Below, piece by piece: positions 2,419-56,484 of a stretch of 64,000 nucleotides of DNA; position 1 is the first letter of the stretch, and each line of letters starts with the position of its first letter. The translations under genes were made by a program, and so were the position numbers. The stretch spans positions 16,457 to 80,456 of the forward strand of contig CASFYT010000006.1 in the NCBI GenBank assembly GCA_949299015.1, written 5' to 3'. This DNA comes from an uncultured Bacillota bacterium. GTDB taxonomy: Bacteria; Bacillota_I; Bacilli_A; RFN20; CAG-288. Below the pieces are notes generated by a model. It searched no databases, was not told where the DNA came from, and saw only the letters and a list, made by a program, of their open reading frames with translations.

Positions 2419-2612
2419 TTCAAAATCTCCCATCGTGATAAACCGACTCATTATATCAATCTCCATGGGGAGGGCTTATCCTTATTGATTCACTATGCCG
2501 TCAGAGGACAATGTAAGCGGTTCATCAGGGTTCTAGGGACGAGAAGTGAAAAAAATCGGTGACACGTTTTTTCCGTTTTTCTATAATCCATGCCATAAGT
2601 GAGGTATCGAAA

Positions 2613-4517: not shown

Positions 4518-4583
4518 CATCGGTTCCCGAAGGCTAAGCCAGGTCGAAAGGCCTGGCTTTTGCATCGGGAGGAGGGATTTCCA

Positions 4584-5447
4584 ATGAAGGTTGCCATGGT
4601 TTACTTTTCCGGCACGGGAAACACGAGAAGGTGCCTCGAGAAGATGAAGGACTGCCTTTCGTCCCTGGAGGACGAGGTCGTTCTTTGGAACCTCGAGGAG
4701 GGAGGAGAGGACCTCTCCTCCTTTGACGTCCTCGTCCTGGGTTACCCTATCCACGCCTTCAACGCGCCGAAGTGGATCCTCGACTTCGCCCGCAGGCTCG
4801 AGACCCTTCCCAGGCAGGCGCCGATCTACGTCCTGAAGACCTCGGGAGAGAACCTCCGGCTGAATCGGCACTCTTCGGCCAAGCTTTCCTCGATCCTGAG
4901 GAGGAAGGGCTACTCGATCGCGGGAGAATTCCATTACCTGATGCCCTACGACATGGTCTTTCGGCACAGCGAATGGATGGCCTATCGGATGTGGCAGACG
5001 GCCGAGCGCCTGATCCCCCTGGATGCCCGGAGAATCCATGGACGGGAACGCTTCGCGACCAAGACGCCCTTTCCCGTCCGCCTTCCGCTCTTCCTCCTTC
5101 GCGTGGAGCAGAAGGCGAGTCCGCTTCTGGGAAAGACGTTCTTCGCCGATCGAAAATGCATCCAGTGCGGTCTCTGCGTCCAGCACTGCCCGAGCCGGAA
5201 CATCGTCCTGAGGAAGGGGCGGGTCCGCTTCTCGACGCATTGCATCCTCTGTTCCCGCTGCGCCTTTTTCTGCCCGAAGGATGCCATCCACCTCGGGCTC
5301 ATCGACTTCCTCCGGGTCAACGGCCTCTATCGCTTCGATGAGGCGCCAAGGCCGAAGAAGGAGAGGCGATACTGCCGCCGATCCTATGCGCGGTACTTCC
5401 AGGAAGCCGAGAAGAGAATCGAGGAGCTGTCAAGGAAAAATACTTGA
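4584..5447 (+). CDS. flavodoxin-like / 2x[4Fe-4S] ferredoxin fusion (EFR1-type)
   Basis: GGAGG RBS precedes the start. MKVAMVYFSGTGNTRRC is a flavodoxin-like N-terminus. Two cluster motifs are present: CIQCGLCVQHCP and CILCSRCAFFCP. Confidence 0.85.
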   Translation: MKVAMVYFSGTGNTRRCLEKMKDCLSSLEDEVVLWNLEEGGEDLSSFDVLVLGYPIHAFNAPKWILDFARRLETLPRQAPIYVLKTSGENLRLNRHSSAKLSSILRRKGYSIAGEFHYLMPYDMVFRHSEWMAYRMWQTAERLIPLDARRIHGRERFATKTPFPVRLPLFLLRVEQKASPLLGKTFFADRKCIQCGLCVQHCPSRNIVLRKGRVRFSTHCILCSRCAFFCPKDAIHLGLIDFLRVNGLYRFDEAPRPKKERRYCRRSYARYFQEAEKRIEELSRKNT

Positions 5448-29465: not shown

Positions 29466-29590
29466 TTTTGAAGGAGCATTGTTTTCAAGAAGGAATGTTT
29501 TCCTCGGGAATCGTTGAAAAAGATAACATTTTACAAAGAAACCTCTGCCGTCTATGATGATGCCGACGACTGATACAAAGGAGCATGAAC

Positions 29591-41956: not shown

Positions 41957-42055
41957 GGCTGAATCGTTTTCGTTGAAACGTCCTCCTTTTTGAGCTATCC
42001 TTGCCATGAGTTGCCTTCCGTCACTCGGAAGGACTGTGGAAAAGGAGTACCGCAT

Positions 42056-44302
42056 ATGAGAGAAGAATGGAAAGGCTTTGTCGGCGGCCATTACGAGACG
42101 GACGTCGACGTCCGCGACTTCATTCAGAGGAACTATCGTCCCTACGAAGGAGATGCCTCCTTCCTCGAGGGCCCCACCGAGGCGACCGACCGCCTCTGGA
42201 GCCGTCTCCAGGAGCTGCAGAAGGAAGAGCGCGCCAAGGGCGGCGTCCTCGACATGGAAGAGCACGTGGTCTCATCGATCAACGCCTACGGGCCGGCCTA
42301 TCTGTCGCCGGAAGGAAAGGGAGACGAGAAGGTCGTCGGCCTCCAGACGGACAAGCCGCTCAAGCGCGCCTTCATGCCCTATGGCGGCATCAAGATGGCC
42401 GAGGAAAGCCTGACGACCTACGGCTACCGCCCCGACCCGTCGCTTCACAAGATCTTCACGGAATACCACAAGACCCACAACCAGGGCGTCTTCGACGTCT
42501 ATACGCCGGAGATCCGCAAGGCGCGCCACAGCCACATCATCACCGGCCTTCCGGACACCTACGGAAGGGGCCGCATCGTCGGCGACTACCGTAGGGTCGC
42601 CCTCTACGGCATCGATTATCTCATCGCCAAGAAGAAGGAAGACTTCGCCAACACGGGTGACGGGACGATGACCGACGACGTCATCCGCCTCCGGGAGGAG
42701 ATCACCGATCAGATTCGGGCCCTGGAGGAGATGAAGAAGCTCGGACAGTCCTACGGATTCGACCTTTCCAAGCCGGCCAAGGATGCGCGCGAAGCCTTCC
42801 AGTGGCTCTACTTCGGATACCTCGCGGCCATCAAGACGCAGAACGGCGCCGCGATGAGCGTCGGCCGGATCTCGACATTCCTGGACATCTACGTCGAGCG
42901 GGACCTCGCCCGCGGAATCCTGACGGAGAAGGAGGCCCAGGAGCTCGTCGACCACCTCGTCATGAAGTTCCGCATGGTCAAGTTCGCCCGCATCCCGTCG
43001 TACAACCAGCTCTTCTCCGGGGACCCGGTCTGGGCCACCCTGGAAGTCGCCGGAATGGGGATGGACGGCCGCAGCATGGTTACCAAGAACGACTTCCGCT
43101 TCCTGCATACCCTGGAGAACATGGGCCCATCCCCGGAGCCGAACCTGACGGTCCTCTATTCGCAGCGCCTGCCGGAAAACTTCAAGAGATATGCCAGCCG
43201 CATCTCCATCCAGACCTCTTCCATCCAATACGAGAACGACGACGTCATGCGTCCGATCTGGAAGGACGACTACTCCATCTGCTGCTGCGTCTCGGCGACC
43301 GAGACCGGAAAGGAGATGCAGTTCTTCGGCGCCCGCGCCAACTTGGCCAAGTGCCTCCTGTATGCGCTCAACGGCGGCAAGGACGAGATGCTGAAGACGC
43401 AGGTCGGTCCGGAAATGGCTCCGGTCACGGGAGACGTCCTCGATTACGGGGAGGTCCTTCACAAGTTCGACCAGATGATGGACTGGCTCTCGGGCCTCTA
43501 CGTCAACGTCCTCAACGCCATCCACTACATGCATGACAAATATTATTATGAAGCGGCGGAGATGGCTTTGATCGATACCAACGTCCGGCGGACGTTTGCT
43601 ACCGGAATCGCAGGCTTCAGCCACGTCGTCGATTCCCTTTCCGCCATCAAGTATGCCAAGGTCCGTCCGATTCGGGACGAAGACGGCATCATCGTCGACT
43701 TCGACGTCGAAGGCGACTTCCCGCGGTACGGAAACGATGACGAGAGGGCGGACGAGATCGCCGTCGACCTCCTCAAGGCCTTCATGGGCAAGATCCGCAA
43801 GCACCACACCTATCGGAACTCGGAGCCGACGACCTCCATCCTGACCATCACCTCCAACGTCGTCTACGGCAAGGCGACCGGCGCCCTTCCCGACGGGCGC
43901 AAGAGGTCGGAACCCTTCGCCCCGGGAGCCAATCCTGCCTACGGCGCGGAGAAGAACGGCCTTCTGGCCTCGCTCAACTCGGTTGCCAAGCTCCCCTATG
44001 AGTATGCGCTCGACGGCATCTCCAACACTCAGACCATCAACCCTTCCGCCTTGGGGAAGACCCTGGAGGAACGCGTCGAGAAGCTGGTCCTGGTCCTCGA
44101 CGGATACTTCGTGAACGGAGGGCACCACCTCAACGTCAACGTCTTCGGAAAGGAAAAGCTGGTCGACTGCATGGAGCATCCGGAACGCCCGGAATACGCC
44201 AACTTCACCATCCGCGTCTCGGGCTACGCCGTCAAGTTCATCGACCTGACGAGGGAGCAGCAGCTCGACGTCATCTCCCGCACATGCCACGAAGTGCTCT
44301 AG
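42056..44302 (+). CDS. pflB: formate C-acetyltransferase (pyruvate formate-lyase)
   Basis: ICCCVSA (active-site Cys-Cys) and TIRVSGYAV (glycyl radical). ATG at 42056 follows AAAGGAG. Confidence 0.97.
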
Positions 44303-45021
44303 GACGCGCCTTCTCCGTCGAGACCTTCGGATCGGTCGACGGCCCCGGACTGCGCTTCGTCCTCTTCCTGACGGGCTGTCCCTTCCATTGCCTGTATTGT
44401 CACAACCCCGAGTGCTGGAGCGGCGCCGACTCCTTCGAGGTCACGGCGCAGGAGGTCCTTCAGAAGGCCCTCCGCTATCGTTCCTACTGGGGGAGGGAAG
44501 GAGGACTGACCGTCAGCGGAGGCGAACCGCTTCTGCAGATGGACTTCCTTCTGGAGCTTTTCCCCCTCTTCCAGGAAAGGGGGATCTCGACCTGCATCGA
44601 CACCTCCCTGGCGCCCTTCACGAAGGAGGAACCCTTCTTCTCCCGCTTCCGGTCGCTGATGGAGAGGACCGACCTGCTTTTGGTCGACGTCAAGGAGATG
44701 GACGAGGAAAGGCATGTCCGCCTGACGGGAAGGGGGAACGCCAACGTCCTCGAGGGGATCCGCTACCTGGATTCGATCGGAAAGAAGATCTGGATCCGTC
44801 ACGTCCTCGTCCCGGGCTACACGGACTTCGACGAAGACCTTCGCGCCCTGCGCTCGTTCCTCGATTCCCTCCACAACGTCGAACGGGTGGAGGTCCTTCC
44901 CTACCATAGCCTGGCCCTCGGAAAGTATCGGAAGCTTCAGCTCCCCTATCCGCTGGAAGGCGTTCCCTCGCCCACAAGGGAGAGGATCGACAACGCCCGG
45001 CGCATTCTCGGGGCGATCTGA
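44284..45021 (+). CDS. pflA: pyruvate formate-lyase activating enzyme
   Basis: [13 protein letters not shown] and [12 protein letters not shown] (radical SAM CxxxCxxC). Confidence 0.95.
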
Positions 45022-45209: not shown

Positions 45210-47258
45210 ATGAACAAACGAAGAATTCTTCTGCCGGTCGTGGCGGCACTCCCGCTTCTGGCTTCCTGTTCCGAGGCCAGCGGCGTTTCCTCGACGTCCT
45301 CGTCCTCTCCCCTTCCCGTCCTCCTTCACGAGAACTATCGTCGGGAGGGGACCTTTTCGATGCAGCTCGGCCTTTCAATCGCCGGCATCCAGGGCGTGGA
45401 GCAGCTCTATGAGAGTCCCATCTCCCTGGACTACCAGGTCGACGAACGGAAGAATTACGGACCCAGCGCCTCCTTCGAGATCCGTCCCTACGACCTCGAC
45501 GGAACGCAAGAGGAACGATTGGACCAGGCCAACCGGAATCGGTCGGTCCTCCATGCCCTCTTCTCCGGAACCTCGACCCTCCTGGACGCCCTGGAGCAGG
45601 ATCCGGGATTCCTTCCCGTCCTGGCCGACCGCTATTCCGGCTCGTTTGAGGACAGCGGGCAGATTCCCGACGAGACGTTCGCCTTCCAGACCTTCGACTC
45701 GCTCACCTACGTCGTCGATACGACCCGGGAGGACGGCAAGGACGTCCTCCGCTTCCTGGCGGCGCAGGAAGAGACGGACGACGGAGGGCTGAACATCGAT
45801 TTTACGAACCTGCAGATCGACGTCCCCGCCCTTCTTCACTATCTTCAGGACCTTCTTCCGGGAGAGGCGGTGCTCCGGCCCATCTTCGCCACGGTCGGGG
45901 ACGTGGTCCAGTTCCTGGCCAACGGCCTTTCCCTCCGCCTTTCGACGCCCTCCGCGGAAGAGACAAAGATCACCCTCTTCCTCAACGAGGAGGGAAGGAC
46001 GACGCTTTCCCGTTCCCTGAGCAATGCCCTCGGGACGACGATCCTGGAAGGCCTGAGCATCGGAGAGATGAGCCTTTCGGTCTCGCTCTTCGACGACGAG
46101 ACGCTGTTTAACCAGCTGGAAAGCTGCCACGTCGACTTTTCCCTGACCCTGCCGCAGGCCTCCCTGGACCTCGACATCGAGGCGGAGTTGGAAAGGGAGC
46201 ACGAGAGGATCGAGGACGACCGCTTCGACGCCTTCCCACAGGACATGGAACAGAAGATGGCGGTCTGCGCCGAGGTCCAGGACTTCTACGATGCCGTCAC
46301 GGACGTGATCCCCTGGCAGGATGAGATTCTCGGAGAAGGGAGCGTCGATCCCCAGAAGGTCGACCTCTCCCATGCTGCCGTCGCGCAGATGCAGGAACAG
46401 GCCGAAAAGTACTTCGCCTTCTCCGAGGAGGGAAAGGCGCTGCTCGGAAGCCGCTTCCAGGAGGCGTCAAGCAGCGAAAGCCTGTCGAACATTCTTCTTT
46501 CCGCTCATCAGGAAGGTGTCGATGCCATCGATCGGCTTCGAGAGCGATTTGCGGAACTCGAAGATGGATTGACGGATGACAATTATCAATCGATCTATCA
46601 GGATGTTGCATCGTATATGAACTGGGAACAAGGGATGAGGGACTACGGTGCCCAAGAGGAAATGGAAGCCTTCGATACCTATCGACAAGACCGGATGGAC
46701 CGGGTGGAACTCGCCTTGCAGGAAGCCCGCCCGGCCTTCGACGCCTTCGTTTCGAATCCCGGCGAAGACAATCTGGACACGGCCGTTTCCCTCTGCCAGG
46801 AAATCGACGACCTCCTCTCGCTGGACTCCCGCTACCTGACGGGCGACATCCAGGATCGTCAGCAGGCGCTTTCGGAAGCCTACCAAGAGGAGACCCAACC
46901 CTTGGCGGAGGCCTACCATCAGTACTTCGCTGCGCTGCTTCCTTCCCTGGACTACGAAGGCCTGAGTTCCCTGGCGGCCACGCCGGCCGTCTCCCATTCG
47001 GCCTTCTATTCCGTCGACGCCCTCTCGGAGGCGGAGCGCGAGACGATTTCCTCCCTGCTGAGGGGAGAGGCGCAGCGCCTGAAGCAGAATCTTCTGGACC
47101 ATTCCTCCTCCTACGCCGACCTCGAGCAGCAATACCTGGCGGACCAGCAGAGCCTTGCGACGCTGGAGGAGACGGAGCGCAGCCTCCTTTCGACGACCCG
47201 CTATGCCTCGGACTGCAAAGACTTCAAGGTCGAGCTGGAATCGATCCTCCGTTCCTGA
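45210..47258 (+). CDS. large acidic lipoprotein (paralogue of 29591-31783)
   Basis: MNKRRILLPVVAALPLLASC (lipobox) with a short Ser-rich linker. TATAAT and AAGGAGG lie upstream. Blocks shared with the paralogue include NYRR(S/E)G, IP(E/D)ET, LRPI..., LFxD(G/D)E and LDLD. Confidence 0.85.
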   Translation: MNKRRILLPVVAALPLLASCSEASGVSSTSSSSPLPVLLHENYRREGTFSMQLGLSIAGIQGVEQLYESPISLDYQVDERKNYGPSASFEIRPYDLDGTQEERLDQANRNRSVLHALFSGTSTLLDALEQDPGFLPVLADRYSGSFEDSGQIPDETFAFQTFDSLTYVVDTTREDGKDVLRFLAAQEETDDGGLNIDFTNLQIDVPALLHYLQDLLPGEAVLRPIFATVGDVVQFLANGLSLRLSTPSAEETKITLFLNEEGRTTLSRSLSNALGTTILEGLSIGEMSLSVSLFDDETLFNQLESCHVDFSLTLPQASLDLDIEAELEREHERIEDDRFDAFPQDMEQKMAVCAEVQDFYDAVTDVIPWQDEILGEGSVDPQKVDLSHAAVAQMQEQAEKYFAFSEEGKALLGSRFQEASSSESLSNILLSAHQEGVDAIDRLRERFAELEDGLTDDNYQSIYQDVASYMNWEQGMRDYGAQEEMEAFDTYRQDRMDRVELALQEARPAFDAFVSNPGEDNLDTAVSLCQEIDDLLSLDSRYLTGDIQDRQQALSEAYQEETQPLAEAYHQYFAALLPSLDYEGLSSLAATPAVSHSAFYSVDALSEAERETISSLLRGEAQRLKQNLLDHSSSYADLEQQYLADQQSLATLEETERSLLSTTRYASDCKDFKVELESILRS

Positions 47259-47313: not shown

Positions 47314-47676
47314 ATGGAAACGAGTCTCACGATTGAAGAGAGGATCCAGAACGTCCTCGAAAAGCTCCGGCCGTTCCTTCAGCGGGAAGGCGGGGACATC
47401 CGCCTGGAGCGGTACGATGCCCAGACGGGCATCTGCTATGTCGACATGATCGGGGCCTGCGCCGGATGCGTGATGGCCTCCACGGACGTCTCGGAATCCG
47501 TCGAGGTGATGGTCCTTGACGAGGTTCCCGAAGTCAAGAAGGTCGAGCTTGTCGCCCCCAAGGCCGAGCCCTCCTTCGACGACCTCCTTCGGCGCCTTGC
47601 CGAGCAGCAGCTGGCGGAAGAAGACCTCCGTCGCCAGCAGGCGGAAGGGAAGGATGGAACCGGCGGAGAGAAGTAG
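47314..47676 (+). CDS. NifU C-terminal (Nfu)-domain protein 1
   Basis: LRPFLQREGGDIRL...GACAGC is the CxxC motif. It has a charged ~40-aa tail. Confidence 0.85.
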   Translation: METSLTIEERIQNVLEKLRPFLQREGGDIRLERYDAQTGICYVDMIGACAGCVMASTDVSESVEVMVLDEVPEVKKVELVAPKAEPSFDDLLRRLAEQQLAEEDLRRQQAEGKDGTGGEK

Positions 47677-47926
47677 GGAGGAGTTCCTTCTCCTGCAGAA
47701 GGCCGAGCGGATCCTCTCCCAGGTCCGCCCCTTCTTCCAGAGGGAGGGGAGCCGGCTCTCCATCAAGGACTGCCGCGAGGGGACGCTCACCATCGTCGTC
47801 TCCGGCGCCTGCGTCGGCTGCGCCCTTGCGACGCAGGACCTCGGCGACGTGACCAGGCTCCTTCAGGAGGAACTTCCCGAGGTGAAGAAGGTCTGTTACG
47901 TGAATCCCTATGGCCTCCCGATTTGA
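47654..47926 (+). CDS. NifU C-terminal (Nfu)-domain protein 2
   Basis: VRPFFQREGSRLSI...GACVGC is the CxxC motif. It overlaps the previous gene by 23 nt. Confidence 0.8.
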   Translation: MEPAERSREEFLLLQKAERILSQVRPFFQREGSRLSIKDCREGTLTIVVSGACVGCALATQDLGDVTRLLQEELPEVKKVCYVNPYGLPI

Positions 47927-47987
47927 GGGGCCATTTTTCTGTTCTTTCCGCCTGGCTGTGCTACAATCTTCCTGCGAGGTATTCATT

Positions 47988-48632
47988 ATGGAAGAAAACA
48001 AGCCGATTCTTGTCGAGACGAGCGCCCACCACATCCACGTCACCCAGGAGACCCTGGAGAAGCTCTTTGGCGAAGGCTTCCAGCTGGAGGTCCGCAAGAT
48101 GCTTTCCCAGCCGGGGCAGTTCGCTTCCAACCAGCGCCTGGACGTCGTCTATCATGCGACCGTCAAGGACAAGAAGACGGGCGAGCTCGTCCAGAAGGAC
48201 TTCACGCTGAAGAACCTTTCCATCCTGGGGCCGGTGCGCAGCGGAAATCAGGTCGAAATCTCCCTGACCGAAGCAAGGTCCATCAAGGCCAATGTTCCGA
48301 TTCGCGAGAGCGGTGATACGAAGGGAAGCGCTCCTTTCACGCTGGTCAATCCTCTCAACGGAAATAAAGTTGATTGTGAAGAGGGCATGATTGTCGCCAA
48401 GCGTCATATCCACATGACGCCGGAAGATGCCGCCCAGTACGGCGTCAAGAACGGCGACATCGTCGCTGTCAAGGTCCTTTCGGCGAACGGACGCAGCGCC
48501 ATCCTGGGCGATGTCGTCATCCGCGTCAGCGAGAAGTATGCCCTGGCGATGCACATCGACACGGACGAATCCAACGCCCTCGGCGGCAATGCCGTCGGCG
48601 TGACGGGGACGATTGTCAAAGAGGCCTTCTGA
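47988..48632 (+). CDS. pduL: phosphate propanoyl/acetyl-transferase PduL
   Basis: Two PduL repeats are present (SAHHIHVTQETLEKLFG and AKRHIHMTPEDAAQYG). TACAAT and GAGGT lie upstream. Confidence 0.92.
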   Translation: MEENKPILVETSAHHIHVTQETLEKLFGEGFQLEVRKMLSQPGQFASNQRLDVVYHATVKDKKTGELVQKDFTLKNLSILGPVRSGNQVEISLTEARSIKANVPIRESGDTKGSAPFTLVNPLNGNKVDCEEGMIVAKRHIHMTPEDAAQYGVKNGDIVAVKVLSANGRSAILGDVVIRVSEKYALAMHIDTDESNALGGNAVGVTGTIVKEAF

Positions 48633-49573
48633 TGCCGAACCTCCTCACCCATTACCGCCTCGTCAAAAGACTCTTTTCGGAGGAGGTCGACGGGAAGATC
48701 AACCCGCCTCCCTCCTTCCTGGACGGGAACTTCGACGCCCTGGCCCTTGGAGCCCAGGGCCCCGATCCCCTTTTCTTCTACCCCCTCTCCGGTCATTTCG
48801 TCGTCGCTCTCCGCGCCTACGGCAGCGTTCTCCACGACAGCGACGGGAAGAAGCTTTTCCGCCTCCTGCTGAAGGCTTCCTACGCCATCGACGACCCTCG
48901 GGAGCTGGCCCGCTTCCGTTCCTTCGTCCTCGGCCAGTTCGCCCATTACCTGCTCGACCGGGAATGCCATCCCTTCGTCTTCTATCAGTCGGGATTCGAT
49001 CGCGAGGGAAGGATCACGGGAAAGTACCACTTCCGGCATACGTTCCTGGAGAGTCAGATCGACGTCGTGATGGCCCGGAAGTTCCACATGGACTACTTCC
49101 TCGAACATCCGGAAGACGTCCTGTCGCAGGATCCCTTCGTCCTCTCCGCCATCTGCAAGAACTTCGCCGGCACGCTCTCCCAGTACTTCGAGGGGAGAAG
49201 CATCCCGCGCGGAATCTACGGGACGTCCGTGAAGAAGATGCGTGCGGCCGTCCGCTTTGCCAACCGACATCCCGACTTCAACCGGACCTTCTTCCGCTGG
49301 AGTTCCCTCGGCGGGCTCTCCATGCCGCGGAAGGTCGAGGAGGACGTCCTCAACGAGCGCCACCTCCCTTGGCGCGACCCGGTCGACGGGTCCGAGCGGA
49401 GCGAATCCTTCCTGAACCTTTTCAACCAGGCCTACGACCAGCTCCGCGAAGTCTATCACCTTCTTCTCGAAAGGGGTTACAACTACGAAGTCTTCCAGAG
49501 CTTCCTCAACGGCAGGGACTACGACGGAAAGATTCTCGGGACGACGATGCGGTACAAGAAGCCGGAAGAATGA
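48632..49573 (+). CDS. zinc-dependent phospholipase C-like family protein (function unknown)
   Basis: MPNLLTHYRL...GAQGPDPLFF...SVLHD...FAHYLLDRECHP is a His/Asp-rich PLC-like pattern. TGATG junction with pduL. Confidence 0.65.
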   Translation: MPNLLTHYRLVKRLFSEEVDGKINPPPSFLDGNFDALALGAQGPDPLFFYPLSGHFVVALRAYGSVLHDSDGKKLFRLLLKASYAIDDPRELARFRSFVLGQFAHYLLDRECHPFVFYQSGFDREGRITGKYHFRHTFLESQIDVVMARKFHMDYFLEHPEDVLSQDPFVLSAICKNFAGTLSQYFEGRSIPRGIYGTSVKKMRAAVRFANRHPDFNRTFFRWSSLGGLSMPRKVEEDVLNERHLPWRDPVDGSERSESFLNLFNQAYDQLREVYHLLLERGYNYEVFQSFLNGRDYDGKILGTTMRYKKPEE

Positions 49574-49583
49574 TGGAAACGAA

Positions 49584-49604
49584 AGGGGCCAACGCCCCTT
49601 TTTT
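49584..49604 (+). terminator. rho-independent terminator
   Basis: GGGGC-CAAC-GCCCC followed by T6. Confidence 0.85.
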
Positions 49605-49693
49605 CGAGTCGGAAGGAGATTTCCGTTTTTTCGCATTTTTGGTGTTTCTTCTTTTCTCTTCTTCGTCTATAATTTCTGATGAGGTTATAAGCA

Positions 49694-51007
49694 ATGGGTC
49701 TACATTTTTTGAAAACGGCTCTCTCGCTTCCGATTCCGGAACACAAGGAAGCGACGGAGGGCTACCCGTACGAGGAGTTCCAACCAGATTTCGTCTATCT
49801 TCCTGCTGTCGATAACCGCAACAACCCCCTGAAAGGCCTTCTTCCGATTGGAACGGAGGTCCTCAAGGGCACCCTTCTGGGGACGGGAGTCGACGATTTT
49901 CCGACCTATTCGTCGGTCTCCGGACGCATCGTGGCGCGAAAGCACATGATGATGGCGGACGGAAAGGTTCGGGAATGCTATGAGATTGCCAACGACAAAC
50001 TCAGCCGATGGCAGCTGCGGCCGGCCCTTCCCGAGGCGGGGAAGTGCTCCAAAGAGGAAATCCTCTCCGCCATCAAGGAATCCGGCGCGGTCGGATTCGG
50101 CGGGGCGGGATTCCCGACCTACCGCAAGTACAACTCCAACAAGCCGGTCGAGGCCATCATCGTCAACGCCATCGAATGCGAACCCTACCTGACCACCGAC
50201 TACAACTATGGTCGGCGGAACATGGGAGAAGTGTTCATGGCCATCCCCTACCTCCTGCGCCTGACGGGAGCCAAGAAGGTCTACGTCGCCGTCAAGAAGG
50301 ACCGCGACGAATTGATCGAGGCCGTTCGGACCGAGATGGCCCTTCCGGCCAACAAGGCCCTTCCCGTCTCGCTCAAGATCCTTCCGGACCGCTATCCGAT
50401 GGGCTATGAGCGCTCCCTCGTCCGCGCCATCCTTCATAAGGAATACCAGGCCCTGCCGATCGAGGTCGGATGCATCGTCAACAACCTCTATACGGTCATG
50501 GCCTTGGCCCGCCGTTTCGTCTTCGGCGAAGTCGTCGCCGATAGGTGCGTCACCGTCAGCGGCGAAGTCAGCGAGCCCAAGGACGTCGTCGTTCCGGCCG
50601 GTACGCTGGCCAGCGACCTGATCAACTGCGCCGGCGGACCGAAGATCTCGCACTTCAAGCTGGTCTCGGGTGGCCCGATGTGCGGCTCCGCCCACGATTC
50701 GGATTACGTCCTCCAGGCCCAGTGCAACGGCGTCCTCCTCTTCGCCCCTGCCTCCGTGGAACCGGAACCCTGCTGGCATTGCGGCAAGTGCATCGACAAC
50801 TGCCCGATGGGACTGCAGCCGGTCCAGATCCAGATGGCCCTCAAGGCCAACAACGTCGACCGTCTTCTCAAGCTCAATGCGGCCGTCTGCATCAACTGCG
50901 GGCTGTGCTCCTTCGTCTGCCCGAGCAAGATCGACGTCTCCGACAACGTCCAGAAGGCCAAGGCCCTGCTGATGAAGCAGGCGCCCCGGCAGAAAGGAGC
51001 CAAGTGA
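49694..51007 (+). CDS. rnfC: Rnf complex subunit C (NADH/FMN, 2x[4Fe-4S])
   Basis: Motifs GFGGAGFPTYRKY, NAIECEPYLTTD, GGPMCG, CWHCGKCIDNCP and CINCGLCSFVCP. Confidence 0.93.
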   Translation: MGLHFLKTALSLPIPEHKEATEGYPYEEFQPDFVYLPAVDNRNNPLKGLLPIGTEVLKGTLLGTGVDDFPTYSSVSGRIVARKHMMMADGKVRECYEIANDKLSRWQLRPALPEAGKCSKEEILSAIKESGAVGFGGAGFPTYRKYNSNKPVEAIIVNAIECEPYLTTDYNYGRRNMGEVFMAIPYLLRLTGAKKVYVAVKKDRDELIEAVRTEMALPANKALPVSLKILPDRYPMGYERSLVRAILHKEYQALPIEVGCIVNNLYTVMALARRFVFGEVVADRCVTVSGEVSEPKDVVVPAGTLASDLINCAGGPKISHFKLVSGGPMCGSAHDSDYVLQAQCNGVLLFAPASVEPEPCWHCGKCIDNCPMGLQPVQIQMALKANNVDRLLKLNAAVCINCGLCSFVCPSKIDVSDNVQKAKALLMKQAPRQKGAK

Positions 51008-51008
51008 G

Positions 51009-52190
51009 ATGAACACGCTCGTCTTTGAAAAGGGTCCGCATCTCCGTTCCCGGAACAAGACGTCCCGGATGATGGTGGAGTTCTTCGTCACCCTCGTCAT
51101 CCTCTATGCCTGTGCCGTTGCCTTCTACTTCGTCAAGGGAGGTCCCTCGGACGAATACAGCAACGTCATCTACGGCCTCATGGCGCTCCAGAACGGCGCG
51201 ATGGGCGTCGGATTCGCCATGGTGGCGGACCTCATCTGGTACTTCCCCTACCTCTTCAAGAAGGACGAAAAGGGCAACCCGGTGGGTCGCTATCTGAAGA
51301 AGGTCCTGAAATCCTATTCCTTCGTGACGGGATTGATTCTCGTCCTTCTGCTGCCGATCGGCCTGGAGTGGTGGGAAATCGCCATCACCTCCTTCCTTTC
51401 GGTCTTCGTCGGAAAGCTCGTCTTCGGCGGATTCGGATCCAACATCCTCAATCCGGCCATCTTCGGCCGTCTCTTCGCTCAGCTCGCCTTCTCTTCCCAC
51501 ATGACGACCTATCTGGGGAACATCGCTCCCGAGGGCTATGGCCAGGTTATCACCGCGGGTGCGACGATTCCGGGCCTTGTCAACGGCGGCACCTTCATGG
51601 TGACCGAGAAGATCTCCTTCTGGAACATGGTCCTGGGCAACTACTACGGCACCCTGGGCGAGACCTTTGCCCTGATCATCGTCATCCTGGGAATCTACCT
51701 CGTCCTCCGCGGCATCATCGACTGGCGCGTTCCCTTCTTCTATTGCGCCTCCCTCTTCTTCAGCTACGGCGTGATGTTCCTCCTGGGCGGCCAGGATGCG
51801 CGCGAGGGCTTTGAGCTCGCGGCTCGTCAGGTCATGATGGGCGGCGTGCTCTTCGGTGGCGTGTTCTGTCTGACCGACCCGGTGACCTCTCCCACGAGCA
51901 AGTCGGGCCGCATCATCTTCTCCCTGATGGCGGCCATCCTCACGATGGTCATCCGCCTCTTCACCAACTCGGCGGAGGGCGTCGCCTACTCGATCCTGAT
52001 CATGAACCTTCTCGTCCCCCTCATCGACCGCTGCCTCACGGGAAGGACGCTGCACAACTGGGGAGCCTCCCTGGCCATCCTCGTCTGCCTCGCCGGCGTC
52101 TTTGCCGTCGGCGTCGGCTACGGAATGACGGGTACCTTCGACTTTGCCAAGAGCCCTTCCTTTGTCTCGAGCATCAAGGAGGTCTTCTGA
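51009..52190 (+). CDS. rnfD: Rnf complex subunit D
   Basis: Polytopic membrane protein. ITAGATIPG is the (S/T)GAT FMN-threonine motif, and LTDPVTSP is also present. Confidence 0.9.
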   Translation: MNTLVFEKGPHLRSRNKTSRMMVEFFVTLVILYACAVAFYFVKGGPSDEYSNVIYGLMALQNGAMGVGFAMVADLIWYFPYLFKKDEKGNPVGRYLKKVLKSYSFVTGLILVLLLPIGLEWWEIAITSFLSVFVGKLVFGGFGSNILNPAIFGRLFAQLAFSSHMTTYLGNIAPEGYGQVITAGATIPGLVNGGTFMVTEKISFWNMVLGNYYGTLGETFALIIVILGIYLVLRGIIDWRVPFFYCASLFFSYGVMFLLGGQDAREGFELAARQVMMGGVLFGGVFCLTDPVTSPTSKSGRIIFSLMAAILTMVIRLFTNSAEGVAYSILIMNLLVPLIDRCLTGRTLHNWGASLAILVCLAGVFAVGVGYGMTGTFDFAKSPSFVSSIKEVF

Positions 52191-52191
52191 C

Positions 52192-52695
52192 ATGAACAAA
52201 GCGATTTCCAAGACCCTTGTCGCCGTCCTGACGACGGCCTGCTGCGTCGGCGCCGTCGTGGGATGCTACTTCGGCCTCCACGAGAAGATCGAGGCGAACA
52301 CTCCGGAAGCGCCGGCGACGATCGCCGCGATCTTCCCCGATTACGCTTCCGCCACGGAGCTCCAGGACTACGATTCGGAATACATCCGCTCCTGCTATGA
52401 CGTCGAGACGGCCGACGACCAGCAAGGCTATTACTACGAGCTGGTCTCGGCGATGGGTCGCTCGGGCACGCTCGAGTTCGCCATCGGCGTCGTCGACGGG
52501 ACGGTCACGAACTATGCCTTCCTCGATGCCGGTTCGGAAGATGCGATGGGCGTCGCGATGGCCCAGGAACAGGCGGCCGATCTCTTCATCGGCTACACGA
52601 TGGATTCGACGGACGTCGTCGCGGGCGTCACGATGACGTCTCAGGCCATGGCCACGGCCATCCGTGCGGCGTTGACGGATGCCCAAGGGAGGTGA
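52192..52695 (+). CDS. rnfG: Rnf complex subunit G (extracytoplasmic FMN-binding domain)
   Basis: N-terminal TM segment. DVVAGVTMTSQA matches the Dxx(S/A)G(A/V)T flavinylation motif. Confidence 0.88.
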   Translation: MNKAISKTLVAVLTTACCVGAVVGCYFGLHEKIEANTPEAPATIAAIFPDYASATELQDYDSEYIRSCYDVETADDQQGYYYELVSAMGRSGTLEFAIGVVDGTVTNYAFLDAGSEDAMGVAMAQEQAADLFIGYTMDSTDVVAGVTMTSQAMATAIRAALTDAQGR

Positions 52696-52701
52696 GGACA
52701 A

Positions 52702-53391
52702 ATGGAACAGAAAAAGCGCAATCTCTTCTTGACCTTCTTCGACGGCATCTATCTGAAGAATCCGGTTCTTTCCCTCTTCCTCGGATTGACTCTCGCCATC
52801 CTGGTCACGACGAACGTCCAGGCTTCGCTCTACCTCGGAGCCATCGTCCTCGTCACCATGGTCGTCGTCGAAGTCTTCTGCTCCCTCTTCCGGAAGGTGT
52901 TGGGCAAGATCCTGAGCTATTGCCTGGCGGCCATCCTCTCGGCGGCCATCAGCTGCATCGCGGTCATGGTCCTCTCCGCCTATTATCCGATCGTCGCCAT
53001 CCCTGGCGTCGGCGGCTTCACCAACGTCCTGATCGTCTCCTTCATCCCCTTCGTCAGCACGACTTCCGCCGTCCTTGTCAAGGGACAGCAGGCGACCGAG
53101 CAGGGCTTCGGCCATGCGCTCTTCGACGGCCTGGGATCGGGCATCGGCTTCGTTCTGGCCCTGTGCTTGATCGCCGTCTTCCGTGAACTTCTGGGTACGG
53201 GCGAGCTCGTCTTCACCCTCGACGCCGACCGTCAGCTCTTCGTCCACGCCATGGACTTCACCCTTCCCTTCTTCCTTACGCCTTTCGGCGGATTCCTGAT
53301 GACGGGTCTCGTCTCCGGCTTCCACGCCTCCATCTGCCGTGCCTTCGAAAACCGCAAGAAGCCTGCGGCTGTGAAAGGAGAACAAGCGTAA
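52702..53391 (+). CDS. rnfE: Rnf complex subunit E, lacking both family-conserved cysteines
   Basis: Rnf-Nqr family fold. It reads KNPVLSLFLGLTLAILVTT where the family has LGxCPxLAV, and FIPFVSTTSAVLV where the family has IPLIVTNCIVV. Confidence 0.85.
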   Translation: MEQKKRNLFLTFFDGIYLKNPVLSLFLGLTLAILVTTNVQASLYLGAIVLVTMVVVEVFCSLFRKVLGKILSYCLAAILSAAISCIAVMVLSAYYPIVAIPGVGGFTNVLIVSFIPFVSTTSAVLVKGQQATEQGFGHALFDGLGSGIGFVLALCLIAVFRELLGTGELVFTLDADRQLFVHAMDFTLPFFLTPFGGFLMTGLVSGFHASICRAFENRKKPAAVKGEQA

Positions 53392-53960
53392 TGGAATACT
53401 TGACCACGTTCTTCGTCTCCCTCTTCGCGGGAAATCTCGTCCTGACGGGACGGGGCGCCTCCCTGGTCTCGCAGTATAGCGAAGCGAAGAGATATCGTCC
53501 GCTGCTTCTTCTCTTCTACGTCATCGCCGGCCTGGCGATCGGCGCCTCGGCCTACGGCCTGAACCTGCTGCTCGACCTCCATCCGGTCATGCAGTACGTC
53601 CAGCCCCTCTTCTTCGTCCTGATCCTCGCCGTCCTCGTCGCCGTCTTCTACGCCCTGATCTGCCTGTCGCCGAAGATGAAGGAGAACCTCCGCCCCGAAT
53701 GGCTTGGTATCCTCCTGAACACTTCGCTTTTCGCCGTGGCGATGTCCGTCCTTTCCCTGGTCGGGACGACCAGCGACATCTGGGCCATCGTGGCCAGCGC
53801 CTGCGGACTTCCCTTGGGCTACGTCCTGACCATCGTCGTCTTCGAGCCGATCGTCGAAAGGATTCGCATCAGCAACGCCCTCAAAGGCTTCAAGACCATG
53901 CCCTTGGTCCTGATCACCATGGCGGGCATGTGCCTCTGCTTCGCCTCGCTGACCTTCTAA
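53391..53960 (+). CDS. rnfA: Rnf complex subunit A, lacking both family-conserved cysteines
   Basis: It reads GNLVLTGRGASLVSQYS where the family has NNxVLxxFLGxCPFxGVS, and LGILLNTSLFAVAMSV where the family has LGIFLPLITTNCAVLG. TAATG junction with rnfE. Confidence 0.8.
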   Translation: MEYLTTFFVSLFAGNLVLTGRGASLVSQYSEAKRYRPLLLLFYVIAGLAIGASAYGLNLLLDLHPVMQYVQPLFFVLILAVLVAVFYALICLSPKMKENLRPEWLGILLNTSLFAVAMSVLSLVGTTSDIWAIVASACGLPLGYVLTIVVFEPIVERIRISNALKGFKTMPLVLITMAGMCLCFASLTF

Positions 53961-53966
53961 GAAATC

Positions 53967-54461
53967 GTGGACAGGAAGAAGATACTTCTTCGGGGCCTCT
54001 TTTCCGACGAACTCCGCTATCGCCCCGTCAAGGATTCGATTCTCATCTTCCTGTCTTTTTTGATGGTCTTCGTCATCGTCTTCGTCACCTACCTCCTGCG
54101 TCCCTCCCTGGAGAACGTCCACGTCGAGATCCGCTATGGGGCGACGCTCCTGTGGGATCCGAAGGACCCTTCGAAGGAGACGGCCATCGCGTTCCCGGAG
54201 GAGGGGAAGCGGGAGATCGTCTATCGCCGGGAAGACGGGGAGATCTTCCTCGGGGAAGGGCGGTACTTCCAGTTCTACGGGGAGGAGGTGGCCATCACCC
54301 TCTACAGCGACCGTTCGATCGAAATCACCCGGGAGGAATCGCCGCGCCACGTCTGTTCCTACCTGGGCCGCGTCTACGATCCCTACGTTCCCCTGGTCTG
54401 CCTTCCCAACAGCTTTCAGGCGACCATCGTGTCGAGCTTCTTCCCGGAGTGGGACGCATGA
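53967..54461 (+). CDS. NusG domain II-containing membrane-anchored protein
   Basis: GTG start 6 nt after rnfA. N-terminal TM segment. HVCSYLGRVYDPYVPLVCLPN resembles the NusG_II C...G.I....ClPn motif. Confidence 0.75.
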   Translation: MDRKKILLRGLFSDELRYRPVKDSILIFLSFLMVFVIVFVTYLLRPSLENVHVEIRYGATLLWDPKDPSKETAIAFPEEGKREIVYRREDGEIFLGEGRYFQFYGEEVAITLYSDRSIEITREESPRHVCSYLGRVYDPYVPLVCLPNSFQATIVSSFFPEWDA

Positions 54462-54979
54462 AGACGAGAAGGCTGGTCGCGCTCGCCCTCTTCGTGGCGC
54501 TGTCGGTGGCCCTCCACTACGTCGAGGGCTTCGTCCCCATGCCGGCCATTCCCGGCTACCATCTGGGGTTGAGCAACCTGGTCAACCTCTTTACGTTCTA
54601 CTACTACGGAATCCCTTCCTACCTCTTCGTCGTCCTGGCCCGGGTCTTCCTCTCGGCCCTGATCTTCAGCGGTTTCGGCCCCTCCTTCTTCCTCTCCCTG
54701 GGCGGCGCCCTCCTCTCCATCGTCGCCACGATCGTCGTCTCCCGCCTGGTGAAGGGATCCATCTACTCCACGTCCGCCTTCTCGGCGCTCTTCCATTCGA
54801 TCGGTCAGCTCGTCGCCTACGCCCTCTTCTTCCAGACGCCCTACATCTTCGTCTACCTCCTCTTCCTGGGTCCCGTCTCGATCGCGACGGGCCTGGTCAT
54901 CGCCTTTCTGGACCATTTCCTGGTCCGTCGCCTTCCCAAATCCTTCCGGGACGAGGAGAAGAAGAGGAGGAAGGCCTGA
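54458..54979 (+). CDS. Gx transporter family protein (formerly 'heptaprenyl diphosphate synthase component I')
   Basis: ATGA overlap with the upstream gene. Length 173 aa with 5 TM segments. Starts MKTRRLVALALFVALSVALHYVEGFVPMP. Confidence 0.75.
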   Translation: MKTRRLVALALFVALSVALHYVEGFVPMPAIPGYHLGLSNLVNLFTFYYYGIPSYLFVVLARVFLSALIFSGFGPSFFLSLGGALLSIVATIVVSRLVKGSIYSTSAFSALFHSIGQLVAYALFFQTPYIFVYLLFLGPVSIATGLVIAFLDHFLVRRLPKSFRDEEKKRRKA

Positions 54980-55039
54980 TTTTTTGTGCCGGCGTCTGCC
55001 GTTGTGTGCTATCATAATTCGATTTTGGGAGGTATGAGA

Positions 55040-55315
55040 ATGAAAACCTATCGCTATTCGCCGCAGGGCACCTGCTCCGTGCGGATGGAATTCACCCTGG
55101 ACGAGGACCATGTCCTCCAGGACTTCGCTGTGGAAAGAGGATGCAACGGCAACCTCAAGGGAATCCGCGCCCTGATCGTGGGCATGAAGGCCGAGGACGT
55201 CATCGCGAAGCTCGACGGCATCCGCTGCGGGATGAAGACGACGTCCTGTCCGGACCAGATCGCCAAGGGTCTCGTCCTTGCCCTGAACGGGGAGCTTGCG
55301 GAGGTGGGACGATGA
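55040..55315 (+). CDS. TSCPD-domain small protein (TIGR03905-like)
   Basis: YSPQGTCS...GCNGNLKG...MKTTSCPDQIAKGL is the four-Cys pattern. GGGAGG RBS. Confidence 0.8.
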   Translation: MKTYRYSPQGTCSVRMEFTLDEDHVLQDFAVERGCNGNLKGIRALIVGMKAEDVIAKLDGIRCGMKTTSCPDQIAKGLVLALNGELAEVGR

Positions 55316-56484
55316 GCTACCGCCATCTCTTCACCTCGGAATCGGTCTCGGAGGGCCATCCCGACAAGATCTGCGACCGCATCGCCGACACCATTCTCGA
55401 CGAATGCCTGCGCCAGGACCCCGAATCGCGGACCGCGATCGAAGTCATGGCGATCCGCGATCGGATCGTCATCTCGGGAGAAGTGACGACAAAGGCAACC
55501 ATCGATTATGAAAAGATTGCACGAGATACCGTTCGTGAAATTGGATATACGGATTTTGCAAGCGGTATCGATCCGGATAAGATGGCGGTCGAGTGCTACG
55601 TCGGGCGCCAGAGTCCGGACATCGCCCGGGGCGTCGAGAATTCCTTCGACCTCAAGAAGACCGGCGCCGGCGATCAGGGCATCATGTTCGGCTATGCCAC
55701 CGACGAGACGGAAAACCTGATGCCTCTTCCCCTGGTCATGGCGCACAAGATCGTCCGCTATGCCACGCAGCTGCGGAAGAGCGGAGCCCTTCCCTTCGCC
55801 CGCCCGGACATGAAGAGCCAGGTGACCATCGACTATTCGGGAGAGAAGCCGCGGCTCAACGCCGTCGTCTTCTCGATGCAGCACGACGAGAGCATCGACA
55901 TCGAATCGCTGCGGAAGATCGCCGTCGAGAAGGTCCTCTTCCCGGTCATCGATTCCTTCGGCATCGATCGCCAGGGCGTCGAGGAGTACTACGTGAACCC
56001 GACGGGCCGCTTCGAGATCGGGGGACCTCGCGGCGACACGGGGGTGACGGGGCGGAAGATCATCGTCGACACCTATGGCGGCAGCGCTCCCCATGGCGGC
56101 GGTGCCTTCTCGGGCAAGGATCCGACCAAGGTCGACCGTTCGGCCGCCTATGCCGCCAGGCACGCGGCCAAGAACATCGTCGCCGCCCATCTCGCCAAGC
56201 GGGCCTTGATTCAGCTCTCGTACGCCATCGGCGTCAGCGAGCCGGTCTCGATCTACCTCGATACCTTCGGGACGGAGACGGTCGACAAGGAGAAGATCCT
56301 CGCCGCCCTCTGCGACGAGAGCATCTTCGACTTCACTCCCGACGGCATCATCCACCGCTTCCAGCTGACCCATCCTTCGTTCCGCTATCGGGACCTTTCG
56401 GCCTATGGTCACTTCGGAAGGCCGGATCTCGACCTTCCGTACGAAAAGCTGGACAAGGTCCAAGTCCTCGAAAGGCTGCGATGA
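55312..56484 (+). CDS. metK: S-adenosylmethionine synthase
   Basis: Motifs GHPDKICDRIAD, GAGDQGIMFGYA and GGGAFSGKDPTKVDRS. ATGA overlap with the TSCPD gene. Confidence 0.98.
   Translation: MSYRHLFTSESVSEGHPDKICDRIADTILDECLRQDPESRTAIEVMAIRDRIVISGEVTTKATIDYEKIARDTVREIGYTDFASGIDPDKMAVECYVGRQSPDIARGVENSFDLKKTGAGDQGIMFGYATDETENLMPLPLVMAHKIVRYATQLRKSGALPFARPDMKSQVTIDYSGEKPRLNAVVFSMQHDESIDIESLRKIAVEKVLFPVIDSFGIDRQGVEEYYVNPTGRFEIGGPRGDTGVTGRKIIVDTYGGSAPHGGGAFSGKDPTKVDRSAAYAARHAAKNIVAAHLAKRALIQLSYAIGVSEPVSIYLDTFGTETVDKEKILAALCDESIFDFTPDGIIHRFQLTHPSFRYRDLSAYGHFGRPDLDLPYEKLDKVQVLERLR

Follow-up and report, generated by a model that had tools for sequence, protein, structure and literature searches.

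The stretch of DNA analysed here, called the window, spans 64,000 nt of contig CASFYT010000006.1 (positions 16,457-80,456) from an uncultured Bacillota bacterium, and the evidence from its own genome covers those 64 kb. It carries an Rnf-type operon with the gene order rnfC-D-G-E-A on the + strand (49694-53960), followed by genes for an EetA-like and an EetB-like protein, the whole row being tightly packed, with nearly all junctions overlaps or gaps of at most 6 nt (Table 1). Two features set this operon apart from ordinary Rnf operons: no gene for RnfB accompanies it, and its RnfE and RnfA subunits lack, as aligned, the cysteines that would hold the iron-sulfur cluster of the membrane core.

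The RnfA/RnfE heterodimer (NqrD/NqrE in the Na+-NQR) and its mid-membrane [2Fe-2S] cluster are described as exceptionally conserved and as central, in Rnf and NQR alike, to electron transfer as well as to ion coupling. Four cysteines, two each from RnfA and RnfE and each on one inner half-helix, coordinate this cluster, which receives electrons from RnfB or NqrF and hands them to the flavin of RnfG or NqrC (PMC12174285). The first-pass annotation, aligning by eye, had read a change of Cys to Thr and of Cys to Ser in RnfE and the absence of both ligands from RnfA, and these readings withstood every comparison. When the proteins were compared by phmmer with chains of the PDB (RnfE matching 7zc6_E at E 2e-10 and RnfA matching 9eri_A at E 5e-5), LGLTLA of RnfE fell opposite LGMCPT and STTS opposite VVNC, while LLNTSLF of RnfA fell opposite ITTNCAV. 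The first RnfE site is unambiguous because the flank NPVxSLFLG is identical in sister operons, which read LGICSTLA against LGLTLA in the window. For RnfA, a MAFFT alignment with the sister loci agrees that Cys is replaced. Profile-profile alignment with hhalign places T30 and S122 of RnfE opposite the two cysteines of canonical RnfE (99.8% probability) and S24 of RnfA opposite the first cysteine of canonical RnfA (98.8% probability); at the second RnfA site there is no cysteine anywhere in ILLNTSLFAVAMS. Such a profile alignment, which the first-pass annotation had itself proposed, thus rescued no cysteine in the conserved columns. The remaining cysteines of RnfE and RnfA sit at other positions and are not conserved in the clade, and the first RnfA ligand site varies even within it. 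A shifted by-eye alignment was rejected, since the PDB searches, the alignment with sister loci and hhalign all concur. All four ligands of the intramembrane [2Fe-2S] cluster, the only known transmembrane link between RnfB and RnfG, are, by these alignments, replaced. An AlphaFold2 model of RnfA (predicted local distance difference test score, pLDDT, 64.6) found RnfA 8ahx_A as its top Foldseek match in the PDB (E 0.64, template modelling score 0.45), a result that is consistent but not usable.

This state is not a peculiarity of one assembly. A search with RnfE of 5.8 billion protein clusters returned about 13 close relatives (40-99% identity), after which similarity dropped sharply to ordinary RnfE, and a profile search of 1.84 billion representatives gave 12 matches at E <= 1e-30. 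All the close relatives read LGLT(L/I/V)A and (T/S)S at the cysteine motifs, with T30 and S122 invariant across the clade. RnfA has only 10 detectable homologues among the 5.8 billion clusters, none of them recognised by Pfam. Seven GTDB species representatives, among them Candidatus Enterosoma merdigallinarum and several metagenome-assembled genomes (MAGs) labelled 'uncultured Firmicutes', share one layout: a zinc-phospholipase-C-like gene, rnfCDGEA, NusG_II, PF07456, TSCPD and metK, with apbE further on. In terms of individual loci, the NusG_II gene is syntenic in L001-L005; in L001-L004 so are the ApbE gene, some 4 kb beyond the operon, and the zinc-phospholipase-C-like, TSCPD and metK genes. 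NCBI taxonomy places the genus Enterosoma in the Bacilli, and we take its GTDB order to be RF39. As judged from these alignments, the MAGs that share the Cys-less state form a small RF39/Enterosoma-like clade in which it is fixed.

All genes of the operon are under purifying selection. Pairwise Nei-Gojobori ratios of nonsynonymous to synonymous substitution (dN/dS) fall between 0.06 and 0.40 for every gene; RnfC is the most constrained (0.06-0.17), RnfE and RnfA range over 0.13-0.33 and 0.17-0.32, and RnfA and RnfG are the fastest-evolving subunits. Decay into pseudogenes was therefore rejected on the grounds of these ratios, the invariance of T30 and S122 and the synteny maintained in seven species.

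The first-pass annotation had also noted that neither rnfB nor a polyferredoxin-type membrane protein accompanies the operon, and the wider search bears this out. Neither the window nor the 20 kb flanking the operon in seven related genomes (L001-L007) yielded an RnfB, a PF04060-like segment or a polyferredoxin. The motif CxxCxxCxxxC occurs in only two segments of the six-frame translation of the window, one in RnfC and the other in a cytosolic flavodoxin_5-Fer4 protein encoded 45 kb from the operon. An overlooked small RnfB was considered and rejected: a hidden Markov model (HMM) built from 35 mini-RnfB sequences, each consisting of a transmembrane helix and PF04060, had zero matches when run on six-frame translations of the window and L001-L007.

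The subunits that would carry electrons from reduced nicotinamide adenine dinucleotide (NADH) to the outer face of the membrane tell a different story from RnfE and RnfA. GGAGFPT, ECEPYLT and the two CxxCxxCxxxCP motifs of RnfC are present throughout the clade, and RnfC alone exceeds its NCBIfam cutoff (285 against 245.95, TIGR01945); RnfD (164 against 207, TIGR01946), RnfG (21 against 102, TIGR01947), RnfE (61 against 213) and RnfA (27 against 229, TIGR01943) stay below theirs. RnfC, first described as intact, thus apparently remains fully functional. Pfam recognises all the other Rnf subunits but has no match for RnfA. RnfD matches the RnfD chains of 9eri, 7zc6 and 8ahx with E values of 1e-35 to 1e-31, and the threonine of its TAGAT motif, pointed out at first reading, holds up as the putative flavin-bearing residue (VITAGAT), a Thr or Ser in every clade member; the Asp that would precede it in the motif is missing.

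The description of the RnfG motif as intact has to be amended. The flavinylated residue stands: hhalign places T147 opposite the flavinylated Thr of canonical RnfG (96.6% probability), and both G145 and T147 are invariant in the clade. The motif around them is degenerate, reading DVVAGVT in the window (Ala to Val) and xVxxG(T/V)T in the relatives (Asp lost, Ala to Thr or Val) against the canonical D-x-x-[S/T]-G-A-[S/T]. Published mutagenesis of the motif found little effect of Asp to Ala and about half the flavinylation with Ala to Val, only loss of the Thr abolishing the modification (PMC12052999). Flavinylation of RnfG is plausible rather than certain, since the motif is degenerate and yet such changes are tolerated in mutagenesis, at a reduced yield. 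An AlphaFold2 model of RnfG, for which three homologues only were available, reached a pLDDT of 43 and is unusable.

The two genes that follow rnfA were at first taken to fill the slot of rnfB. Their position, 6 nt after rnfA and overlapping each other by 4 nt, was correctly seen; their role as a replacement for RnfB was rejected. They correspond to EetA and EetB, known neighbours of ordinary Rnf, and the same NusG_II and PF07456 pair sits after a mini-rnfB in L009. In Listeria, EetB (PF07456), a protein of the energy-coupling factor substrate-binding (ECF-S) type that binds flavin adenine dinucleotide (FAD), supplies FAD to an extracytosolic ApbE homologue and is needed for extracytosolic flavinylation (PMC9973259). 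The same study labels PF07009 (NusG_II) as EetA in its Data Set S1 and reports colocalisation of eetB with eetA for 3,328 genomes, with apbE for 2,169 and with Rnf for 572 genomes of Clostridia. The window has this FAD-export arrangement, with adjacent PF07009 and PF07456 genes near apbE; no ECF-T or ECF-A partner of EetB was seen in the window. The ApbE flavin-transferase lipoprotein placed some 4 kb downstream by the first-pass annotation is indeed encoded there, 3.8 kb beyond the pair. A PF07456 gene also stands beside apbE in L034 and L036. Given that they neighbour ordinary Rnf and follow a mini-rnfB in L009, EetA and EetB are best seen as a putative flavin-supply module for RnfD and RnfG, and their retention argues that flavins still matter to this complex.

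Table 1. Features of the window (positions without a prefix) and of related loci (L numbers)
Feature	Position	Strand	Description and evidence
Zinc-phospholipase-C-like protein	48632-49573		Directly 5' of the operon; PF00882 30.6 bits
RnfC-like subunit, 437 aa	49694-51007	+	NADH, flavin mononucleotide (FMN) and 2x[4Fe-4S] subunit; TIGR01945 285 bits; RnfC_N, Complex1_51K, SLBB, Fer4 (Pfam)
RnfD-like subunit, 393 aa	51009-52190	+	Membrane subunit, ITAGAT Thr; PF03116 226 bits
RnfG-like subunit, 167 aa	52192-52695	+	Membrane-anchored extracytoplasmic FMN_bind subunit; PF04205 28.7 bits (cutoff 22)
RnfE-like subunit, 229 aa	52702-53391	+	T30 and S122 at [2Fe-2S] Cys positions; PF02508 80 bits
RnfA-like subunit, 189 aa	53391-53960	+	Highly diverged, both [2Fe-2S] Cys gone; PDB and hhalign matches, no Pfam
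EetA-like NusG_II membrane protein, 164 aa	53967-54461	+	PF07009 25.4 bits, under the 29.6 cutoff
EetB-like protein, 173 aa	54458-54979	+	PF07456 ('Gx'/Hpre_diP_synt_I) 98.9 bits; putative FAD-exporting, ECF-S-type
TSCPD protein	54986-55315	+	TIGR03905-type, four Cys; directly 3' of the operon row
metK	about 55309-56484	+	After the TSCPD gene
ApbE-family flavin transferase lipoprotein, 505 aa	58795-60312	+	PF02424 85 bits; signal peptide with Cys lipobox
Flavodoxin_5-Fer4 protein	4560-5447		Cytosolic
Pyruvate formate-lyase	41990-44302		
Pyruvate formate-lyase activase	44284-45021		
NifU-like ORF	47314-47676		PF01106 66 bits
NifU-like ORF	47654-47926		PF01106 47 bits
PduL-type phosphotransacylase	47910-48632		PF06130
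Predicted lipoprotein	802-2466	-	No Pfam match
Predicted lipoprotein	2559-4517	+	No Pfam match
Predicted lipoprotein	29585-31783	+	No Pfam match
Predicted lipoprotein	45210-47258	+	No Pfam match
Antisense ORF	49700-51100	-	Over rnf genes
Antisense ORF	50892-52211	-	Over rnf genes
Antisense ORF	52174-53385	-	Over rnf genes
Terminator-like hairpin	49598-49625		Just 5' of rnfC
apbE / rnfCDGEA	L043		RnfE no Cys, RnfA one displaced Cys; no RnfB; canonical RnfG motif
apbE / rnfCDGEA	L044		RnfD fused to FMN_bind domain; one of four Cys; no RnfB
rnfC-D-G-E-A	L050:3246-8227		RnfE and RnfA zero Cys; no RnfB; RnfD with C-terminal FMN_bind; RnfG with two FMN_bind
Short contig	L052		RnfE Cys/Ser; RnfA first Cys to Asp; RnfB not seen (short contig)
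Partial cluster	L051		Cys-poor; no RnfB directly after rnfA
Partial cluster	L054		Cys-poor; contig ends at rnfA
RnfD-E-A only	L053:5947-8570		Cys-less; no RnfC, RnfG or RnfB
Mini-RnfB	L032:11419-11727		
Mini-RnfB	L008:11428-11733		
Mini-RnfB	L037:11383-11694		
RnfE, second Cys to Ala	L048:7001-7666		
RnfA	L048:7659-8594		120-aa N-terminal extension
RnfB, 291 aa	L048:8604-9479		Full RnfB
2-Oxoacid:ferredoxin oxidoreductase (POR)	L048:9484-12071		

Other features of the row call for brief comment. The long antisense open reading frames (ORFs, 400-470 aa) over the rnf genes have a GC content at third codon positions of about 0.55-0.62 against 0.80-0.87 in the sense genes, and from this codon-position pattern they are taken to be shadow ORFs of a 60% GC genome and not real genes. 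The scan that returned the hairpin just 5' of rnfC found none inside the gene row, and it did not perform above chance.

The nearest canonical relatives offer the intact state for comparison. In 35 sister loci of the Erysipelotrichaceae (L008-L042), whose genera include Holdemanella, Faecalicoccus, Catenisphaera, Absicoccus and Erysipelothrix, a divergent apbE is followed by rnfC-D-G-E-A. Both cysteines of RnfE and both of RnfA are kept in all 35, and all 35 carry, about 180 nt 3' of rnfA, a mini-RnfB of about 102 aa made of a transmembrane helix and a PF04060 Fe-S domain (LPGYNCGGCGxPGC...CKP), without ferredoxin-type domains. Examples are listed in Table 1 and a further one lies in L018; the 35 loci include some from cultured strains (Holdemanella biformis DSM 3989, Faecalicoccus pleomorphus DSM 20574, Catenisphaera adipataccumulans DSM 25799). 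The Bacilli operons compared thus fall into grades: mini-RnfB with four cysteines, no RnfB with zero or one cysteine and, outside the group, full RnfB. Among the top 148 representatives matching the Cys-less RnfE profile, 86 have both RnfE cysteines, 26 have one and 36 have neither, a split that does not give family-wide frequencies, as the profile favours Cys-less sequences.

Several of the operons outside the window's clade are also Cys-poor and RnfB-less (Table 1). In a neighbour-joining tree of RnfC and RnfD, L043 and L044 fall inside the Erysipelotrichales-type group, apart from the window's clade. Because they nest among Erysipelotrichales-type operons, RnfB and the cysteines would have been lost together at least twice. 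The joint loss of RnfB and the A/E ligands, initially proposed from the window alone, is thereby strengthened by a state fixed in a clade, by canonical relatives that remain intact and by a second independent loss. Some of these operons have features of their own. The FMN_bind domains of L050 all bear canonical SGATVSS motifs, and a sortase gene lies nearby. In L052 the canonical flavinylation site of RnfD (L052:3-1106), LDAVSTATPL, is preceded by an insertion of about seven D-x-x-SGAT(A/E) repeats in tandem, which may form a multi-flavinylated loop. The cluster of L053 comprises an RnfD-like protein of 355 aa without SGAT, a Cys-less RnfE-like protein of 305 aa and an RnfA-like protein of 219 aa with no Cys (PF02508 33.5 bits).

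The converse combination, Cys-less RnfA and RnfE in an ordinary RnfB-containing operon, was not found among the operons compared; had it been common, the proposed link between the two losses would have been undermined. The one variant with an RnfB and an altered cysteine set among them is a large soil-type clade represented by L048, whose 'RsxE' proteins make up 39 of the 120 best RnfE matches. Here the second RnfE Cys is replaced by Ala (LIVAFAIIIS), three cysteines are kept, including both of RnfA, and the full RnfB adjoins a 2-oxoacid:ferredoxin oxidoreductase.

What such a complex might do can be approached from the subunits that are conserved. The reading we favour, to which we give about an even chance, is that of an Rnf-derived complex that has lost its link to ferredoxin and works as an NADH-driven electron exporter around a redox-dead RnfA/RnfE pair, a function inferred from the conserved motifs and gene neighbourhood. 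Electrons of NADH would enter at RnfC, travel by way of its Fe-S clusters and then the riboflavin and FMN of RnfD, and arrive on the covalently bound FMN of RnfG at the outer membrane face. An extracytoplasmic acceptor would take them up there, for instance free flavins, metal ions, oxygen or a flavinylated surface reductase. NAD+ would thereby be regenerated for a fermenter that uses pyruvate formate-lyase, an enzyme yielding formate and not reduced ferredoxin. RnfA and RnfE would be kept as a redox-dead structural partner of RnfD and RnfG or as an ion path, which the invariant Thr and Ser of RnfE at the old cysteine positions may line. The pyruvate formate-lyase, its activase and the PduL-type phosphotransacylase encoded in the window are consistent with a ferredoxin-independent pyruvate metabolism. 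Two adjacent, slightly overlapping NifU-like ORFs precede the PduL gene. The extra outward-facing flavin sites in the RnfB-less or Cys-poor L044, L050 and L052 fit an export role, and a one-way path from NAD(P)H to an extracytosolic flavin has been proposed for two-subunit 'NQR/RNF-like' systems (PMC8238504, PMC11334425).

Several observations weigh against electron export. Canonical Rnf sends electrons from RnfC to RnfG when it runs in reverse, which requires the ion gradient. Throughout the clade the RnfG motif has degenerated, its Asp not kept and its Ala changed to Val or Thr. The structure models of RnfA and RnfG are too poor to use. Outside the 64 kb the genome may hold an rnfB, a second rnf/nqr locus or enzymes that depend on ferredoxin, and the DEA-only cluster of L053 suggests that the membrane core may have a role unrelated to electron export. 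Finally, no extracytoplasmic acceptor was found in the window, where the large lipoproteins have no Pfam domain. Four such predicted lipoproteins of 550-730 aa are encoded there (Table 1); in each, long poly-serine tracts come after a signal peptide of the lipobox type.

Other explanations account for part of these data. Electron transfer by the complex could be largely lost, its RnfD-E-A core surviving in a non-redox or residual role as a channel or transporter of ions or solutes and RnfC and RnfG serving assembly or regulation. The occurrence of RnfD-E-A alone in L053, with no SGAT site in RnfD, would suit this role, as would the degenerate RnfG motif and the rapid evolution of RnfA and RnfG, and the invariant T30 and S122 of RnfE fit a polar intramembrane site. 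We nevertheless hold it to be unlikely, for the NADH, FMN and Fe-S motifs of RnfC are invariant in the most constrained of all the subunits (dN/dS 0.06-0.17), no member has lost the flavin-bearing Thr of RnfD or RnfG, and ApbE and the FAD-export pair remain linked to the operon. A complex still linked to ferredoxin or flavodoxin seems improbable. It would need an RnfB or another donor encoded elsewhere, such as the cytosolic flavodoxin-Fer4 protein of the window, that bypasses the A/E cluster, or else an A/E metal centre with non-Cys ligands. The genome view of 64 kb leaves room for such a donor, and the L048 variant, with three cysteines and a full RnfB next to its oxidoreductase, implies some tolerance in the ligand set. 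Here, however, four ligands are lost and not one, the first RnfA site is unconserved in the clade, PF04060 is absent within 20 kb in seven relatives, and the losses of RnfB and of the cysteines co-occur in two independent lineages; moreover, solved structures need the A/E cluster for electrons to cross the membrane to RnfG (PMC12174285).

The gene order invites a further comparison, since rnfCDGEA equals nqrABCDE and Reyes-Prieto et al. propose for NQR an origin in an rnf copy that lost rnfB (PMC4014512). The complex might accordingly pass NADH electrons from RnfC through the riboflavin of RnfD to a membrane quinone, with RnfG and A/E as bystanders, and would then be a present-day counterpart of the rnfCDGEA stage from which Na+-NQR is proposed to have arisen. 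We see only a slim chance of this: the window showed no genes for quinone biosynthesis, the RnfG Thr, ApbE and EetAB are conserved though needless for quinone reduction, RnfC retains the cofactors that NqrA does not, and the related Cys-poor operons gain outside flavin sites and no quinone-related features. Electrons might also flow inwards, from an extracytoplasmic low-potential donor through RnfG-FMN and RnfC to NAD+, possibly with ion pumping as in the forward Rnf half-reaction, RnfG to RnfD to RnfC being the forward, ion-pumping direction in canonical Rnf (PMC12174285). That direction is very improbable here: no candidate donor enzyme was found near the operon, a fermenter relying on pyruvate formate-lyase would presumably have an excess of NADH and not a shortage, and flavin potentials disfavour the reduction of NAD+ from outside.

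Export of NADH electrons through RnfC, RnfD and RnfG therefore remains our preferred explanation, and it can tentatively be extended beyond the window. Possibly, though we would not lean on it, monoderm Bacillota (RF39/Enterosoma-like gut bacteria, relatives of Erysipelotrichales and others) harbour a recurrent and unrecognised class of complexes, 'flavin-only' and derived from Rnf, that discarded RnfB and the [2Fe-2S] cluster together more than once, in which RnfC-D-G would be an NADH-driven exporter to extracytoplasmic flavins and the cluster-free A/E pair would persist in a second role that needs no cluster, as an ion path or an obligatory scaffold. If true, this class would separate the two functions proposed for RnfA/E and provide a living analogue of the rnfCDGEA intermediate at the origin of Na+-NQR, and the exporter would represent a quinone-independent route of extracellular electron transfer (EET) in Gram-positive gut bacteria. 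Natural complexes without cluster or RnfB, whose A/E subunits are under selection, offer in any case a ready-made test of what A/E do beyond carrying the cluster. For annotation, matches to rnfCDGEA are now read as a ferredoxin:NAD+ pump, which is probably wrong for RF39-type gut bacteria and several other lineages. The published definition counts an RNF system only where rnfB is present (PMC8238504), so that RnfB-less operons fall outside existing classifications; no prior description of an RnfB-less or Cys-less Rnf was found in the literature searched, which is not proof of absence.

With canonical Rnf (7ZC6, 9ERI, 8AHX) the window operon shares homologous C-D-G-E-A subunits in the Firmicute order, the RnfC motifs, the Thr of RnfD and RnfG and a nearby ApbE; it differs in having neither RnfB nor the A/E cysteines, with RnfD, RnfG, RnfE and RnfA below the NCBIfam cutoffs and RnfA outside Pfam. 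The Erysipelotrichaceae operons, its nearest canonical relatives, have the same order, the NPVxSLFLG flank and an adjacent ApbE, but keep all the cysteines and a minimal RnfB. The 'NQR/RNF-like' systems (Meheust et al. 2021, PMC8238504; Huang et al. 2024, PMC11334425) resemble it in their proposed one-way transfer from NAD(P)H to an extracytosolic flavinylated subunit by RnfD/NqrB and RnfG/NqrC homologues without a ferredoxin branch. In these systems an RnfD-like domain without the RnfD flavinylation site is fused to an NqrF-type NAD-binding domain (PF00175), and RnfC, RnfA and RnfE are missing, whereas in the window RnfC is the NADH module, A/E are kept without the cluster, RnfD matches PF03116 only and no PF00175 occurs in the operon.

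The Listeria locus for flavin-based EET (FmnB/ApbE, EetA, EetB, PplA, Ndh2) likewise combines EetA and EetB with an ApbE-type lipoprotein and likely couples NADH oxidation to external acceptors; Ndh2, quinone and PplA are not seen in the window, where the membrane step would fall to RnfC-D-G. The Na+-NQR, finally, has in nqrABCDE the layout of rnfCDGEA without rnfB, and is thought to derive from an rnfB-less rnf copy (PMC4014512). It gained NqrF, kept the four cysteines of NqrD/E and lost the cofactors of NqrA, while the window operon, in which no NqrF-like gene was seen, took the opposite course, with RnfC intact and the cysteines lost. It is nonetheless similar to the rnfCDGEA intermediate from which NQR is postulated to have evolved (PMC4014512), though NQR itself kept the cysteines.

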